Assembly (NCBI GenBank): GCA_964444635.1
Contig: CAYUIA010000001.1
Coordinates: forward strand, 1 to 41,983
Reading direction: 5' to 3'
Source of the DNA: an uncultured Gammaproteobacteria bacterium
GTDB taxonomy: Bacteria; Patescibacteriota; Patescibacteriia; Magasanikbacterales; GWA2-37-8
DNA: 41,983 nt
Positions 18,927-24,735 of this stretch are shown piece by piece. The notes below the pieces were generated by a model. It ran no database searches. It had not been told where the DNA came from and saw only the letters and a program-made list of their open reading frames with translations. How positions within the stretch are numbered: the first letter of the stretch is position 1; each line of letters starts with the position of its first letter. The position numbers and the translations under genes were made by a program.

Positions 18927-20630
18927 CTACTCAGTCACACGGAACACTTCCTCTACAGTCGTGACTTTGTTGAGTGCTTTGAGTATGCCATCTTGCACCA
19001 TTGTAACCATCCCATTTTTTACCGCAATTTCTTGGATAGCATATTCACTGGTTTGGCCGGTCAAAATGATTTCTTCTATTTCTTTGTTCATGGTAAATAT
19101 TTCATAAATGCCGATACGGCCTTTATAACCCAAACCCGAGCAAGCTTCACAACCTTTACCGTGATAAAATTTCAAATTATCAAAATCTATTTTATTTTTT
19201 TCGTTTTCCGGTAATTTTTCCAGTTGCTCTTTGACCCGAGTCATTTTTTCATCGTCTATTTTTATTTCTTCAATACATTTGGGACAGGTACGACGAACTA
19301 AACGTTGACCGATAATAGCATTTAGTGACGGGGCTAATAAAAAAGGCTTAACACCCATAGAAAGGAAACGAGGTAATGCCCCAGAAGCGCTGTTGGTGTG
19401 AATGGTGGATAGCATCAAGTGACCGGTCAGGGCGGCCTGAATAGCAATTTCAGCGGTTTCCAAATCACGGATTTCTCCAACCATACAAATATCGGGATCT
19501 TGGCGCAAAATACTGCGTAAACCTTTGGCAAAAGTATAATCGCGACTTGGATCAACTTGGCTTTGATTGACGCCTTCCATTTTGATTTCCACCGGATCTT
19601 CCAAGGTGATAATCTTTACTCCTGGTTTATTGAGAGTGCGTAAAATAGCGTAAAGCGTAGTTGTTTTACCAGAGCCTGTCGGACCGGTAGTGATAATCAT
19701 ACCGTTTGGTCTCTCTACTTCTCTTTTTAGTCTTTCATAAGAATCACCGTAAAAACCTAAGTCGTCAAAAGTAACACCTTTGCTACCGGAAAATAAAATT
19801 CTCATTACCACGCTCTCGCCATAAGTGGTTGGCATGGTGGAAACACGGACATCAATATTACCGGAAGGGAGTTTCAAAGTGACGCGTCCGTCTTGCGGTT
19901 TGTCGGTAATATTTATTTTAAGCGCGGCTAATAATTTGATACGAGAAACAAAACGCTTCCATTGCTCTATCGGTAAATTGGCGACATCGTGGAGTACTCC
20001 ATCAATACGATAGCGCACGGCAATGCCTTTTTCTTCGGCTTCTACGTGAATATCTGAGCTGTTTAGTTTGAGGGCAGAGGCAATAATCAAAGTCAAAATA
20101 TCGGTAATATTGATATTTTTGAATTTTTCTTCCAGAGACTGGATGTTATTCATCTCTACCTGGTATTTATTGAGCTCTTCTTCGGTAATATTAATCTCTT
20201 TACTAACCGGTTTGATGACCGGGAGATTTGCATAGAGTTTGAGTACATAGTCCAAACTATTTTGTGAGATGAGATAAATCTCTGTTTCTGCGTGACCTTT
20301 TTCACCCAGTTGATAAGCGTATTCTTTGAGTGAATCGTCCAAATCCGTAACTGCCAGCTTGATTTTGTCCGGTAGTGAATAAAAACAAATCAGATTTTTT
20401 TCACGAGCGACGCTCTCCGGGATCAAACGCAATGATTCTGCGGAAACAGGGAATCCGTAAAGGTTGATATAAGGCAGACCGAGTTCTTTGGCCTTTTTTT
20501 CCGTATCTTCTTCTCTGCCTTTTTGACGGATGGTTTTTATTTTTTGCGATAATTGCTCTTGAACATCATCGCTTTTTTTCTTGGTACCCCCCTTTTTCAT
20601 CAATTCGTTGATGGATTGAAAATCGGACAT
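18927..20630 (-). CDS. pilB: Type IV pilus / type II secretion assembly ATPase (PilB/GspE family)
   Basis: N-terminal T2SSE_N-like domain, Walker A GPTGSGKTTT, Walker B/Asp box ILRQDPDICMVGEIRD, His box GHLMLSTIHTN, and a tetracysteine motif CPKC...CEAC. Confidence 0.92.
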   Translation of the reverse strand: MSDFQSINELMKKGGTKKKSDDVQEQLSQKIKTIRQKGREEDTEKKAKELGLPYINLYGFPVSAESLRLIPESVAREKNLICFYSLPDKIKLAVTDLDDSLKEYAYQLGEKGHAETEIYLISQNSLDYVLKLYANLPVIKPVSKEINITEEELNKYQVEMNNIQSLEEKFKNINITDILTLIIASALKLNSSDIHVEAEEKGIAVRYRIDGVLHDVANLPIEQWKRFVSRIKLLAALKINITDKPQDGRVTLKLPSGNIDVRVSTMPTTYGESVVMRILFSGSKGVTFDDLGFYGDSYERLKREVERPNGMIITTGPTGSGKTTTLYAILRTLNKPGVKIITLEDPVEIKMEGVNQSQVDPSRDYTFAKGLRSILRQDPDICMVGEIRDLETAEIAIQAALTGHLMLSTIHTNSASGALPRFLSMGVKPFLLAPSLNAIIGQRLVRRTCPKCIEEIKIDDEKMTRVKEQLEKLPENEKNKIDFDNLKFYHGKGCEACSGLGYKGRIGIYEIFTMNKEIEEIILTGQTSEYAIQEIAVKNGMVTMVQDGILKALNKVTTVEEVFRVTE

Positions 20631-20632
20631 AA

Positions 20633-21598
20633 TTATTTTTGAAAAAGTTTAATAAAAAGATGGCCGATACTGGAAAAAATACCTTTGTGATGCATCTTCA
20701 TAAAAAGATACATCCAAGTACCGGTATTAAAAGCATTGTAAAAACCGCCGATAATGATTATCAAAACCGTGATAGTTAAAATACTCAAAATTATCCCTAG
20801 GTTTAACAAGAAAATACTATTGACCAGTCCGGCCAAGAACCACAGGATAGTAGCCGGAATAAAAGATAAGACAATAACTGTGGAAATCAAAGAGGCTAAT
20901 ACCAAATCCAATAGTAACATTATCAAGCTTATTTCAAAAGAAACCAAAAAGTGATCCTTGAAAAGCAAAGCGCCTTTTTTCAGACTCTCGCCAAAAGATT
21001 TATTATCAATGACTGCGTAGCCAGAAGCGTAGATAGAAACGGCGGTCACAACAAGCATGATAAAAATAGCGATGATAAAAGACAAAATCAGAAAGACCTT
21101 GGTTGGCAGGTTATTGCTTGTTCCCAAAAACCAAACACCGGCGCTAAAAGCGGTCATTAAGATCAAAATTATTTTACGTAATAAATCAAAGCCTAGTATT
21201 TTCCAAAAATATTTGTAACTTTTGTGCCAAGTATCGGATAACTTGGAATGCGTCTTCTTTTTGTAATATTCGCAAGTGTTGATAATGAGCGAAGTTTGAG
21301 CACAAACGGAAACAAAAACTATAATTATGAAAATAGCCAAAATAATCTCAAGTAGCCAAACTGCGGAAACAAAATCAGCCGCCGAGCTGTGAGCGAGTAG
21401 ATTATAAAATCCCATCCAAGGAAAATGACTGAAACGAATAGTTTCGGAACCGGTCAAAAATATTTGTCCGTAAAAACCGCCCAATCCAAAAGGGCTGACA
21501 AAAAGTGCGGCCAAAATACCGAAAATCCAAAAAGATTTATTTTTCCAAACAAGGATAAAAGCGTTTTTTAAAGCTTCGCGATAACTTGGTTCGTACAT
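20633..21598 (-). CDS. Hypothetical polytopic membrane protein, apparently translationally coupled to pilB
   Basis: 321 aa with about 6-7 hydrophobic helices. Its stop codon is 2 nt from the pilB ATG. It does not resemble PilC. Confidence 0.6.
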   Translation of the reverse strand: MYEPSYREALKNAFILVWKNKSFWIFGILAALFVSPFGLGGFYGQIFLTGSETIRFSHFPWMGFYNLLAHSSAADFVSAVWLLEIILAIFIIIVFVSVCAQTSLIINTCEYYKKKTHSKLSDTWHKSYKYFWKILGFDLLRKIILILMTAFSAGVWFLGTSNNLPTKVFLILSFIIAIFIMLVVTAVSIYASGYAVIDNKSFGESLKKGALLFKDHFLVSFEISLIMLLLDLVLASLISTVIVLSFIPATILWFLAGLVNSIFLLNLGIILSILTITVLIIIIGGFYNAFNTGTWMYLFMKMHHKGIFSSIGHLFIKLFQK

Positions 21599-21900: not shown

Positions 21901-22527
21901 ATGGAACAAAGAATGACTTCTCAAATCGCGCCTTATTTTGGCGCGCGGCAATTGTTTGAAAAGCATGACCCGAACTCTCTCCCGAGCCTCAATGTCTTTC
22001 CTTTTTTTAAAAGAGAAAACATAAAGGCTTATCTGGACAAGCATTACCGGTTTACTCCGGCGGAAGAAAAAGAGTTTCTTTCCTGGTCCCTTGAATGTAT
22101 TATTTTACTGGAACCGGAAAACGATCTGTCCAAAGCCAATGAACTTCTCCGGCTTTTCAAAAAAGAGTTTGACGATTTCTCGGTCAACAAGGCGGTTTTA
22201 AACGCCCTGGTTCAACAGAATTTCTGCGATGAGATTGCTCTTGAGGACCTACTTGGTCTTTTACGCAACTTGGAAATCAAGCCGGGTTCTCCGGAAGCGT
22301 TTGAATTGACGGCCAAATATACAGAACGTTTTCGTGAAGAAGTTACCAGATCTTCCGAAAGCACCAAGAGAACTTTGTGCAATTTCAAAATGCTGGCGGA
22401 AAAGTTCGGCGTGGATCTCAAGGGGTTCAAAGGCTGTTTTGAATCTTTTGTGACCGATTACGAAAAACACCATCACTATAATTCCGCCGCTGTTCTTCGG
22501 GGTTTTATCGAAGAAGATCTTGTCTAA
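21901..22527 (+). CDS. Orphan 208-aa helical protein, a distant paralogue of the 30080 gene
   Basis: SD GGAGG 5 nt before the ATG, with its own promoter and terminator. Shares ...DLS...N(F)CDEIAL..(L)L.......P..A..L..KY with the 126-aa protein at 30080. Confidence 0.7.
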   Translation: MEQRMTSQIAPYFGARQLFEKHDPNSLPSLNVFPFFKRENIKAYLDKHYRFTPAEEKEFLSWSLECIILLEPENDLSKANELLRLFKKEFDDFSVNKAVLNALVQQNFCDEIALEDLLGLLRNLEIKPGSPEAFELTAKYTERFREEVTRSSESTKRTLCNFKMLAEKFGVDLKGFKGCFESFVTDYEKHHHYNSAAVLRGFIEEDLV

Positions 22528-22535
22528 AATACTTT

Positions 22536-22562
22536 AACCGTCCTATTTAGGGCGGTTTTTTT
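22536..22562 (+). terminator. Terminator of the 208-aa gene
   Basis: ccgtcc-tattta-gggcgg followed by T7. Confidence 0.75.
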
Positions 22563-22581
22563 ATCACTTTTTACATTGTGG

Positions 22582-22609
22582 TTGACTTTTTTTGGGGAAT
22601 TGTTATAAT
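22582..22609 (+). promoter_or_regulatory. Promoter of the thrS leader
   Basis: TTGACT, 16 nt, TATAAT. Confidence 0.65.
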
Positions 22610-22615
22610 TTTGAT

Positions 22616-22764
22616 TGCTAGTCAAAAGAACCAGCCCAGACGTGACAGTGTCATGGTACCACTCTTTGGAGAAACGACAATTTAGAAAAAGTGAAAAATA
22701 CGGGTGGAACCGTCCTAAATTTTTAAGGACCCCGATACCTCTGTTTTTGAGGTGTCGGTTTTTT
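22616..22764 (+). promoter_or_regulatory. T-box riboswitch leader (Thr specifier) controlling thrS
   Basis: T-box motif AAUACGGGUGGAACCGUCC. It folds as the canonical antiterminator GGG-[UGGAACC bulge]-GUCCU-loop-AGGAC-CCC. A terminator follows immediately: CCGAUACCUC-uguuuuu-GAGGUGUCGG plus U6. The specifier context GAGAA-ACG-AC at 22669-22678 matches the GAA-codon-A pattern, and ACG codes for Thr. Confidence 0.75.
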
Positions 22765-22785
22765 ATTTTAAAACATACCAATATA

Positions 22786-22880
22786 CTAATGGTACGAATG
22801 ATACTAATGCTATACTAATACTCAATACGAATATATTCGTATTCCATTCGTATAATTAGTACAATTCGTATATTAGTATA
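22786..22880. repeat. AT-rich word palindrome (tactaat/acgaat words) between the T-box terminator and the thrS ATG
   Basis: Perfect 14-nt palindrome acgaatatattcgt at 22827-22840. It is flanked by tactaat/acgaat words on the left and attagta/attcgt words on the right. Confidence 0.6.
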
Positions 22881-22899
22881 AATTAAATAATATTCACAT

Positions 22900-24735
22900 A
22901 TGAAATTAGATATTTCAATTATGCGTCATAGTTGTGCGCACTTGGTGGCCGCGGCTGTAGCCGAGCTTTATCCTAAAGCTAAATTTGGTGTAGGCCCTAT
23001 GATTGAAAACGGGTTTTATTATGATATTGATTTTGGTGTGCCGATAACAGAAGAAGATTTACAAAAAATAGAGGACAAAGCCAAGGATCTGCAAAAACAA
23101 GATTTGCCATTTTCCCGTCAAGAGGTGACCCTTGACAAAGCTATGGAAAAGTTTGCACAAATGGGCCAAGATTACAAAGTAGAGCTGTTAAATGATCTCA
23201 AAACCAAAGGTACGACCAAAATCAATGATGAAGAATTGGCTGAGATTGGCGGAAATATAGATAAAGTCACTATCTATCAAACCGGTAATTTTATAGACCT
23301 TTGTCGTGGTCCGCACTTGAAATCTACCAAAGAAATCGGTGTTTTTAAGCTAACTAAACTGGCCGGTGCTTATTGGCGCGGTAAAAGCGAAAATCCGCAG
23401 TTGACCAGAGTTTATGGCGTTTGTTTTGCCAAACAAAAAGAGTTGGATGATTATCTGTTTTTGTTGGAAGAAGCGGAAAAACGAGATCATCGCAAACTGG
23501 GCAAGGAGTTGGATCTATTTCATATTGATGAGATGGTTGGTTTGGGTTTGCCCCTGTGGCATCCCAAGGGCGCGATAGTTTGGCGAGTGATTGAAGAATT
23601 TTGGTATAAGCATCATTTGCTTGATGGTTATGAATTGGTACGCACCCCGCACATTGGCAACAAAGCGCTTTGGGAAACTAGCGGACATTGGGGATTTTAT
23701 AATGATAGTATGTATCCGCCACTGGAGGTCGGGCAAACACTCAAAGAAAGTCAAAACAATCAAGAAGCCAAAGAGCATGAAACTTATTTGCTCAAACCCA
23801 TGAACTGTCCGTTTCATGTGCAGATTTTCAAAAATCGTCCATATTCTTATCGCGAACTTCCTCTGCGTTGGGCGGAATGTGGCACAGTTTATCGTCATGA
23901 GAAAAAAGGTCAGTTATCGGGTTTGACTCGCGTGCGCGGTTTTACTCAAGATGATGCGCATATTATTTGTTCCAAAGAACAAGTAGAAGAAGAGCTCAAA
24001 AGAGTGATAGATTTTATTTTGTTTATTTATAAATCGTTTGGTTTCAACATTGATGATGTACAAGTATTCTTGTCTTTGCGTGATCCAAATGATAAAGAAA
24101 AATATGTTGGTAGCGACGAGGGTTGGGAATTGACGGAAAGTGTTTTGCGTAAAGTTGCCAAAGAAAAGAAATTAAACTTTACCGAAGAACTTGGTGAAGC
24201 CGCTTTTTACGGTCCGAAATTGGATTTCAAAATTAAAGATTGTTTGGGCCGGCTCTGGCAATGCTCTACTTTGCAGTTTGATTTTAATATTCCGGAACGC
24301 TTTGATATGAATTTCGTAAATAATAAAGGCGAACAAGAACGTCCGTATATGTTACATCGCGCGCTATTTGGTTCGTTTGAGAGATTTATCGGCTTGCTCA
24401 TAGAACATTATGCCGGAGCTTTTCCAGTTTGGTTGGCACCGACACAAATTATGCTCGTACCGGTGAGTGAAAAACATGTAGAAGGCGCGAGAAAAATCAG
24501 AGCCGAGTTGATTGAGCTTGGTTTACGAGTGGAAAGCGATGAAGCGGATGAAACACTTGGTAACAAAGTTCGCAAAGCCGTGAAACAAAAAGTGCCTTAT
24601 ATTATCGCGGTGGGCGATAAAGAACTTAGCGGCGAAGATTGGATGATCAGAATCAGGGGGGTGGAAAAACAAGAAAAAATGAGTAAAGAAAAATTTATTG
24701 AAAAGATTTTGGGAGAAGTAAAAGAAAGAAAATGA
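22900..24735 (+). CDS. thrS: Threonyl-tRNA synthetase lacking the N-terminal TGS domain
   Basis: 611 aa. Begins at the editing-domain motif RHSCAHLVAAAV...GPMIENGFYYDIDF. Class II motifs YRHEKKGQLSGLTRVRGFTQDDAHI and GAFPVWLAP, plus an anticodon-binding domain. Confidence 0.96.
   Translation: MKLDISIMRHSCAHLVAAAVAELYPKAKFGVGPMIENGFYYDIDFGVPITEEDLQKIEDKAKDLQKQDLPFSRQEVTLDKAMEKFAQMGQDYKVELLNDLKTKGTTKINDEELAEIGGNIDKVTIYQTGNFIDLCRGPHLKSTKEIGVFKLTKLAGAYWRGKSENPQLTRVYGVCFAKQKELDDYLFLLEEAEKRDHRKLGKELDLFHIDEMVGLGLPLWHPKGAIVWRVIEEFWYKHHLLDGYELVRTPHIGNKALWETSGHWGFYNDSMYPPLEVGQTLKESQNNQEAKEHETYLLKPMNCPFHVQIFKNRPYSYRELPLRWAECGTVYRHEKKGQLSGLTRVRGFTQDDAHIICSKEQVEEELKRVIDFILFIYKSFGFNIDDVQVFLSLRDPNDKEKYVGSDEGWELTESVLRKVAKEKKLNFTEELGEAAFYGPKLDFKIKDCLGRLWQCSTLQFDFNIPERFDMNFVNNKGEQERPYMLHRALFGSFERFIGLLIEHYAGAFPVWLAPTQIMLVPVSEKHVEGARKIRAELIELGLRVESDEADETLGNKVRKAVKQKVPYIIAVGDKELSGEDWMIRIRGVEKQEKMSKEKFIEKILGEVKERK

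Follow-up and report, generated by a model that had tools for sequence, protein, structure and literature searches.

A very probable threonine T-box leader of reduced form upstream of thrS in a Patescibacteria genome

In the 41,983-nucleotide (nt) stretch of DNA analysed here, hereafter the window (contig CAYUIA010000001.1 of GenBank assembly GCA_964444635.1, placed by GTDB in the Magasanikbacterales of the Patescibacteriota), the threonine–tRNA ligase gene thrS is preceded by a leader of about 150 nt, counted from its start to a U-tract. Sequence comparison makes it very probable that this leader is a functional, reduced, threonine-specific T-box that attenuates transcription by sensing uncharged tRNA-Thr(GGU). 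The original prediction of a threonine-specific leader of the T-box type before thrS in a CPR (candidate phyla radiation) genome is supported by conservation, covariation and the match between specifier and gene; its word ‘canonical’ fits the discriminator half of the leader but not the Stem I half, which is truncated.

Architecture and specifier codon of the thrS leader

The leader lies where T-boxes are expected, directly 5′ to an aminoacyl-tRNA synthetase gene and on its strand. Its parts and the gene that follows are listed below, with paired helices designated P1–P3 in Stem I and A1 and A2 in the antiterminator.

22582–22609, plus strand: predicted sigma-70-type promoter (consensus scan; 11 of 12 consensus positions)
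22613–22682, plus strand: truncated Stem I, with covariation in P2 and P3 and a putative P1
22613–22617 with 22678–22682, plus strand: putative P1, GAUUG with CAAUU, covarying in other genera
22625–22629 with 22663–22667, plus strand: P2, AAAGA with UCUUU, 98% paired, compensatory changes in 4 of 5 pairs
22630–22639 and 22653–22662, plus strand: Stem I internal loop, an invariant module with ACCAGCCCAG on the 5′ side and AUGGUACCAC on the 3′ side
22639–22652, plus strand: P3 cap hairpin of 5 bp with the 4-nt loop GACA, 93% paired, compensatory changes in 4 of 5 pairs
22658–22661, plus strand: predicted specifier, the Thr codon ACC (22658–22660) and the purine A22661 within GGUACCAC, from invariance and from codon and gene tracking each other
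22683–22700, plus strand: A-rich single-stranded linker of 18 nt from Stem I to the T-box, with no stable fold and the conserved AAAGUGAAA at 22688–22696
22701–22734, plus strand: antiterminator (discriminator), invariant in the family, covarying at class and phylum level
22701–22704 with 22731–22734, plus strand: helix A1, CGGG with CCCG (C22701–G22734, G22702–C22733, G22703–C22732, G22704–C22731)
22705–22711, plus strand: 7-nt bulge UGGAACC, of which UGGA (22705–22708) is complementary to the tRNA 3′ end U73-C-C-A
22712–22716 with 22726–22730, plus strand: helix A2, GUCCU with AGGAC, its pairs covarying at class and phylum level
22732–22764, plus strand: intrinsic terminator, a 10-bp stem of CCGAUACCUC (22732–22741) with GAGGUGUCGG (22749–22758), a 7-nt loop and six U (22759–22764)
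22900–24735, plus strand: thrS, threonine–tRNA ligase of 611 amino acids (NCBIfam TIGR00418, 689 bits against a cut-off of 384)

The T-box core AAUACGGGUGGAACCGUCC occupies 22698–22716 and includes CGGGUGGAACCGUC (22701–14), which is invariant in the family. All parts of the antiterminator that were originally predicted are present, namely GGG, the bulge UGGAACC, GUCCU with AGGAC, and CCC, and the strong terminator with its run of six U is equally borne out, with a 10-bp stem of −17.6 kcal/mol.

The predicted promoter also agrees with the initial proposal, with TTGACT at −35 (22582–22587), a 16-nt spacer and TATAAT at −10 (22604–22609), and its −10 element is of the extended type, preceded by TG (TGtTATAAT, 22601–22609). 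Relatives carry comparable TTGACA/−10 pairs at an equal distance from the leader. Since the upstream open reading frame (ORF) has a terminator of its own (22536–57), the leader represents a separate transcription unit, and because the consensus scan finds no plus-strand promoter-like site between 22610 and 22892, spacer included, thrS has no evident promoter except that of the leader. The encoded threonyl-tRNA synthetase (ThrRS) contains the Pfam domains tRNA_SAD, tRNA-synt_2b and HGTP_anticodon.

Stem I of the window leader has neither an AG bulge nor a distal loop with interdigitated T-loops and therefore lacks the elbow-binding platform; only P3 stands above the specifier loop. Four relatives (L018, L008, L157 and L158) retain AGAGA and a distal loop. 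A check for kink-turn (K-turn) and S-turn motifs at the level of sequence only found a conserved GGAG after the 3′ strand of P2 and (U)AGU(C)A before its 5′ strand, and the canonical GAUGA...GAGC K-turn is seen only in other CPR lineages. Folding likewise revealed no Stem II, IIA/B pseudoknot or Stem III in the window leader, the linker at 22683–22700 being unstructured. Leaders from other families of the class do have a Stem III hairpin, set between AGUG and AAUUC, which the window leader has lost.

Comparison of leaders indicates that the specifier is ACC at 22658–22660, followed by A. This codon sits directly 5′ of the 3′ strand of P2, which is followed by GGAG, giving the canonical order of codon, purine, helix and GA motif, and the surrounding GGUACCA is invariant among the leaders of the main class. 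Where the position does change, it changes with the gene. ACU replaces ACC in three leaders that are each linked to thrS (L082, L174 and L175, the first about 190 nt upstream of the gene), and GGC or GGA is found in ten leaders that have glyS downstream on the same strand (L042, L054, L058, L117, L135, L136, L183, L185, L187 and L197) and share the T-box core of the thrS leaders. The glycyl-tRNA synthetase identity was assigned with NF003211 (550 bits against a cut-off of 312). In one of these, L136 from a Magasanikbacteria record, the window's AUGGU-ACC-AC is matched by AUGGU-GGC-UC, read by eye because the covariance-model alignment did not display this stretch. Codon identity thus tracks the regulated synthetase, ACC or ACU with thrS and GGC or GGA with glyS, and the position therefore behaves as a specifier. 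A second architecture before thrS displays CUACCAA, UUACCAG or CCACCAA in a 7-nt terminal loop, and when the Rfam T-box model RF00230 is aligned to L018, its codon and purine positions fall on (A)CC-A of GGUACCAC.

The specifier was originally placed at ACG, 22674–22676. This triplet is present, but it lies outside the covarying core of Stem I, and leaders of the same genus read AUG (L002, L005), GCG (L004) or CUG (L006) there, so we abandon that assignment; the ACAAU motif beside it is moreover present in L136, a leader of glyS. The overlapping ACA at 22677–79, within the recurrent motif UACAAAUU, was rejected as a specifier because it is absent from about one-third of the main-class leaders and because ACAAU is shared with L136. 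We also rejected an auto-inhibited state suggested by the minimum-free-energy fold, in which GGUACCACUC (22655–64) pairs with GGGUGGAACC (22702–11), since the complementarity is lost in L082 with its ACU codon, in the terminal-loop class and in the glyS leaders. Both strands of this pairing are invariant in the main class and hence hold no covariation information; the complementarity is probably a by-product of ACC-AC.

With ACC as the specifier, the cognate tRNA would be tRNA-Thr(GGU) and not the CGU isoacceptor that had been named in advance. The tRNA-Thr(CGU) gene of the same genome (C22:7229–7302) does have U at the discriminator position, and genomes of the genus contain a Tyr–Thr(UGU)–Thr(GGU) tRNA cluster in which both tRNA-Thr have U73. 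The anticipated match of the UGGA bulge to a discriminator U therefore extends to all three tRNA-Thr isoacceptors of the genus (CGU, GGU and UGU), whose genes do not encode the CCA end. Only 24 tRNA genes in total were found in the assembly, and its contig C8 ends exactly at tRNA-Tyr(GUA) (21029–21111), where relatives continue with Thr(UGU) and Thr(GGU). The genome's own GGU and UGU genes are thus probably hidden by the assembly break.

Some of the glyS-linked leaders have peculiarities of their own. Four Gly-type mini T-boxes (L042 and L054, labelled Peribacteria; L117 and L058, labelled Gracilibacteria) present GGC or GGA in a hairpin loop of 7–8 nt, and a gene for a NUDIX hydrolase separates leader and glyS in L042 and L054. 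The ThrRS matches in the genomes of L117 and L058 contain in-frame TGA codons (1 and 33, respectively), consistent with genetic code 25.

Conservation, covariation and the antiterminator–terminator switch

Among 100 genomes (41 genera) of the same family, a BLASTN search with 22560–22900 recovered the leader core (about 22626–22773) in 77 (34 genera), and the leader stands upstream of thrS on the same strand in each of the 30 family loci that were fetched, a recurrence well beyond chance. Its nucleotide identity remains at 70–80% where the ThrRS protein is only 42–50% identical, and GGGTGGNACCG occurs a single time in the 621-kb assembly. Invariant blocks in an alignment of 20 main-class leaders are ACCAGCCCAG, followed by a variable hairpin and YAUGGUACCAC, then GGAG, AAAGUGAAA, UUCGGGUGGAACCGUC and GACCCCGAU. 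With P1, P2, P3, A2 and the terminator scored as the structure, 89.3% of the paired cells in these 20 leaders hold a pair, compared with 27–47% when the partners are slid by 1–3 columns, and the covariation score is 0.517 against a maximum of 0.142; none of 500 shuffles reached the observed values. The covariation that had been proposed as a check in homologous leaders of related genomes is therefore strong, and it is found in every variable helix. In the terminator stem, 94% of the cells are paired and 5 of 11 pairs show compensatory changes.

Beyond the family, two samples of 151 genomes each were searched, one drawn evenly from the class and one from across the phylum. A model of the full main-class leader matched 13 genomes of the first, and a model of the antiterminator only matched 33 of the second, nearly always once in each; both counts are lower bounds, given the sampling and the strict filters. 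Of 29 phylum matches that were fetched, 24 have thrS and four have glyS on the expected downstream side, and one lies on a contig that is too short. The T-box in Patescibacteria appears confined to thrS and glyS. A pattern scan of a 596-billion-base contig collection was too loose, with about 130 matches estimated to arise by chance, and we used only those with thrS or glyS downstream; most of the others, for example in Streptomyces and Micromonospora, are noise. Additional genes separate leader and thrS in some genera, a phosphoribosyltransferase gene in L009, L013 and L026, and genes for a Ham1-family nucleoside triphosphate pyrophosphatase-like protein and a GNAT acetyltransferase in L021, so that sensing of threonine tRNA would control those genes too.

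Because helix A1 is invariant within the family, class-level variants were added to the antiterminator alignment. The pair equivalent to C22701–G22734, which the selection of sequences left unconstrained, is C–G in 28, U–A in 5 and U–G in 1, and is never unpaired. This extra pair enlarges the overlap between antiterminator and terminator. The original prediction was right that the overlap is short, but it comprises 3 nt and not about 2: C22732, C22733 and G22734 belong both to A1 and to the first three pairs of the terminator stem.

The base 3′ of CCC is thus shared by two structures, and we tallied it in 70 distinct leaders from family, class and phylum together with the base 5′ of GGG, its partner in A1, and its partner in the terminator. 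Written in the order A1 base, shared base, terminator partner, the combination is C-G-C in 47 leaders, C-G-U in 10, U-A-U in 8, and A-U-A, A-U-G, G-C-G, U-G-C and U-G-U in one each. In each of the 70 leaders the shared base can form a pair with either partner, across four Watson–Crick states, although its pairing in the terminator, and not that in A1, is partly a consequence of how the folds were parsed. One nucleotide therefore covaries with two alternative partners, which argues that the two structures are mutually exclusive. The predicted energies are −22.8 kcal/mol for the terminator together with A2 and −9.6 kcal/mol for the antiterminator alone; the terminator state is favoured, and the default would therefore be termination (OFF).

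Two leaders from different genera (L006 and L016) have insertions of 75–94 nt in the A2 loop, both starting with CCUUCGCCCCUUCGGGGCU. They resemble antiterminator insertions that are specific to particular lineages, for instance stem Sa of the staphylococcal glyS T-boxes.

Proposed mechanism, known relatives and alternative explanations

In the mechanism that we propose, transcription would start from the promoter at 22582–22609 and by default stop at the terminator (22732–22764), before thrS. Uncharged tRNA-Thr(GGU) would pair through its anticodon with ACC (22658–22660), displayed in the internal loop of the truncated Stem I, and through its free 3′ end, U73-C-C-A, with the bulge UGGA (22705–22708). 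Both contacts would stabilise the otherwise weak helix A1, which in turn would withdraw C22732, C22733 and G22734, and with them the three terminator pairs beside the U-tract, allowing RNA polymerase to read into thrS. A charged tRNA could not make the 3′-end contact, and termination would prevail. Binding of the tRNA, discrimination between its charged and uncharged forms, and read-through are the inferred steps of this scheme.

Several known systems resemble parts of the leader. With T-boxes of the glyQS type (Bacillus, Geobacillus and Oceanobacillus; RF00230) it shares the position before an aminoacyl-tRNA synthetase gene, the terminator/antiterminator switch, the T-box sequence GGGUGGNACCG, a 7-nt bulge with UGGN and a specifier plus purine on the 3′ side of Stem I, and neither has Stem II or the IIA/B pseudoknot. 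However, glyQS keeps the platform of a long Stem I (AG bulge and distal loop) as well as Stem III, whereas the window leader lacks Stem III and carries just a 5-bp hairpin beyond its specifier loop. Where the specifier loop of glyQS reads AGUA/GAA (the S-turn), the sequence here is ACCAGCCCAG/AUGGU; the overlap is confined to 3 nt, and RF00230 is blind to the leader. The Escherichia coli thrS operator also exerts feedback control of thrS through a leader RNA structure, but it is a mimic of the tRNA anticodon arm, bound by ThrRS over the ribosome-binding site, in contrast to the codon, T-box bulge and terminator seen here. A similar physiological role belongs to the thrS and thrZ leaders of Bacillus subtilis, in which uncharged tRNA-Thr controls threonyl-tRNA synthetase and the specifier is also ACC; those leaders show the complete class I architecture, with a long Stem I, Stems II, IIA/B and III and a length of about 300 nt, against about 150 nt, promoter to terminator, in the window.

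Most T-boxes act on transcription and have a long Stem I with an essential interdigitated T-loop motif, whereas truncated Stem I forms are mostly actinobacterial translational T-boxes that need Stem II for tRNA binding (PMC7583486). As far as they are described there, the translational ileS T-boxes of actinobacteria, whose Stem I is short or ultrashort (Sherwood, Grundy and Henkin 2015, via PMC7583486), resemble the window leader in having no elbow-binding platform, and related CPR leaders (L021, L024, L030, L177 and others) present the codon in a 7-nt terminal loop, CUACCAA, as the ultrashort actinobacterial forms do. By the same account, those forms sequester the Shine–Dalgarno sequence and depend on Stem II, unlike the window leader with its intrinsic terminator and without Stem II. 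In none of the archetypes that we compared do a truncated Stem I, the absence of Stems II and III and read-out by a terminator occur together.

Relatives nevertheless connect the leader with canonical T-boxes. L018, a family member with a long Stem I that carries ACAGAGAG (the AG bulge) and a distal loop, is the relative that scores best against RF00230, at 30.9 bits, in an alignment that deletes 40 Stem II and 15 Stem III positions of the model. Elsewhere in the class, AGUG and AAUUC-GGGUGG enclose a Stem III hairpin in thrS leaders, some of which also retain a long Stem I, and elsewhere in the phylum many leaders combine the GAUGA...GAGC K-turn with a hairpin loop that displays the codon. 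We therefore read the window leader as the reduced end of a continuous series of T-box forms.

Several observations weigh against a functional T-box. RF00230 gives no match on the window at its gathering threshold of 93 bits, none on 22480–22960 at E ≤ 10 with permissive filters, and none in the whole 621-kb, 86%-complete assembly. In the original prediction, a score below that threshold or a Stem I that could not be folded plausibly was to count as refutation; with no match at all and no canonical Stem I, the finding would be refuted by that standard. We hold the standard to be too strict for this architecture: RF00230 misses the leader owing to the truncation of Stem I and the absence of Stems II and III. 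The window copy has no platform, Stem II or Stem III, although the platform is called essential in transcriptional T-boxes (PMC7583486). In this genus, P1 begins 4 nt past the −10 hexamer and may not be transcribed, or not fully. The overlap in the switch is limited to 3 nt, and a residual hairpin of 7 bp (−8.7 kcal/mol), standing 3 nt away from the U-tract, could still form together with the antiterminator. Finally, tRNA-Thr(GGU) was not found in the 86%-complete assembly. Weak matches to other Rfam families (PyrR, rimP and others) are all far below threshold and reflect terminators only.

Some of these points would be expected of a decayed T-box relic, in which Stem I no longer recruits tRNA, the discriminator half is a plain leader hairpin and terminator or the target of another factor, and thrS is expressed through leaky termination or a different signal. 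The missing platform, Stem II and Stem III and the 3-nt overlap agree with such decay, as does the very weak tRNA binding of truncated Stem I forms on their own (PMC7583486). But ACC-A and UGGA are invariant over many genera while the surrounding helices change in a compensatory manner, and Gly codons take the place of ACC precisely in the leaders that glyS follows. Neither the match of codon to gene nor that of bulge to discriminator would persist in a relic, and we regard decay as unlikely. The strong promoter, the strong terminator and the 113–176 nt of inserted repeat before thrS in this genus could instead suggest an independent small RNA gene that merely adjoins thrS and is uncoupled from it by the insert. 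We consider this quite improbable, because the element is found directly upstream of thrS or its operon, on the same strand, at every locus examined, usually 18–70 nt from the start codon (the distance in most other genera), and because a second promoter-like site on the plus strand is missing between 22610 and 22892.

An autoregulatory operator of the E. coli thrS type, in which ThrRS would bind a leader mimicking tRNA-Thr, would involve the same gene and hairpins before its start codon. Yet what the conserved loop displays is the codon ACC and none of the Thr anticodons GGU, UGU and CGU, the terminator that closes the element lies 135 nt short of the ATG and clear of the ribosome-binding site, glyS is preceded by the same scaffold carrying a Gly codon, and the invariant bulge UGGAACC would have no role; the chance of such an operator seems to us very small. 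We thus favour the threonine-specific T-box. How it would capture its tRNA is a separate matter: it is possible, at somewhat less than even chance, that this is a working transcriptional T-box without elbow platform, Stem II and Stem III in which the ACCAGCCCAG/AUGGUACCAC module, the AAAGUGAAA linker or both provide a new tRNA contact or pre-organisation.

T-boxes are a model case of RNA–RNA recognition in gene control, and the leader, if functional, would be the smallest natural architecture for tRNA-sensing control of transcription, a minimal T-box of about 150 nt. It would then be at odds with the view that co-transcriptional capture of tRNA cannot do without the platform, and it raises the testable question of which minimal set of contacts such capture requires. 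It would also extend T-box regulation into Patescibacteria (CPR). A full-text literature search, which covered few papers from subscription journals so that an earlier description is possible, returned no published description of a T-box in CPR taxa; the main text of the TBDB paper does not mention candidate phyla, and a 2024 perspective on Patescibacteria names riboswitches only as prospective tools. Because standard annotation misses such elements, the regulatory RNA content of CPR bacteria is underestimated, and a compact tRNA-responsive switch could serve as a genetic tool in these hard-to-manipulate organisms.

Palindromic spacer and neighbouring genes

The 135 nt of AT-rich palindromic DNA that had been noted between the terminator and the ATG (22900) are confirmed, and most of this spacer is a single feature.

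22767–22887, no strand assigned: inserted palindromic repeat of about 120 bp, imperfect, composed of the words TACTAAT and TACGAAT and of their complements

Its two arms of 54 nt (22767–22820 and 22834–22887) are 78% complementary, and as RNA the repeat would fold with −32.5 kcal/mol (z = −4.2). Another copy lies at C21:1526–1650 of the same genome (G000), many more are found in two genomes of the same genus (G064 and G065), and sister species (L003, L004, L005 and L012) have different word-palindromes at the same site. The spacer is therefore a genus-level repeat insertion outside the conserved riboswitch, and the pattern suggests small elements resembling miniature inverted-repeat transposable elements (MITE) or repetitive extragenic palindromic (REP) sequences that have landed repeatedly just downstream of the terminator. 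An ORF of 35 amino acids with a GTG start (22752–22859) and five Thr codons was rejected as a threonine attenuator, since its start codon falls within the terminator stem and its sequence belongs to a repeat with further copies in the genome. On the minus strand of L003 (2599–2706), a long hairpin in the locus of a relative matches the Rfam family Wolbachia sRNA 46 with 49.7 bits, below its gathering score of 65.3; the hairpin probably represents a palindromic repeat rather than a homologous RNA.

Upstream of the leader, two ORFs without a Pfam match (20633–21598 and 21901–22527) stand beside a gene on the minus strand (18927–20630) for a type II/IV secretion ATPase of the T2SSE family (413 bits), which fits the type IV pilus machinery that is common among CPR bacteria.

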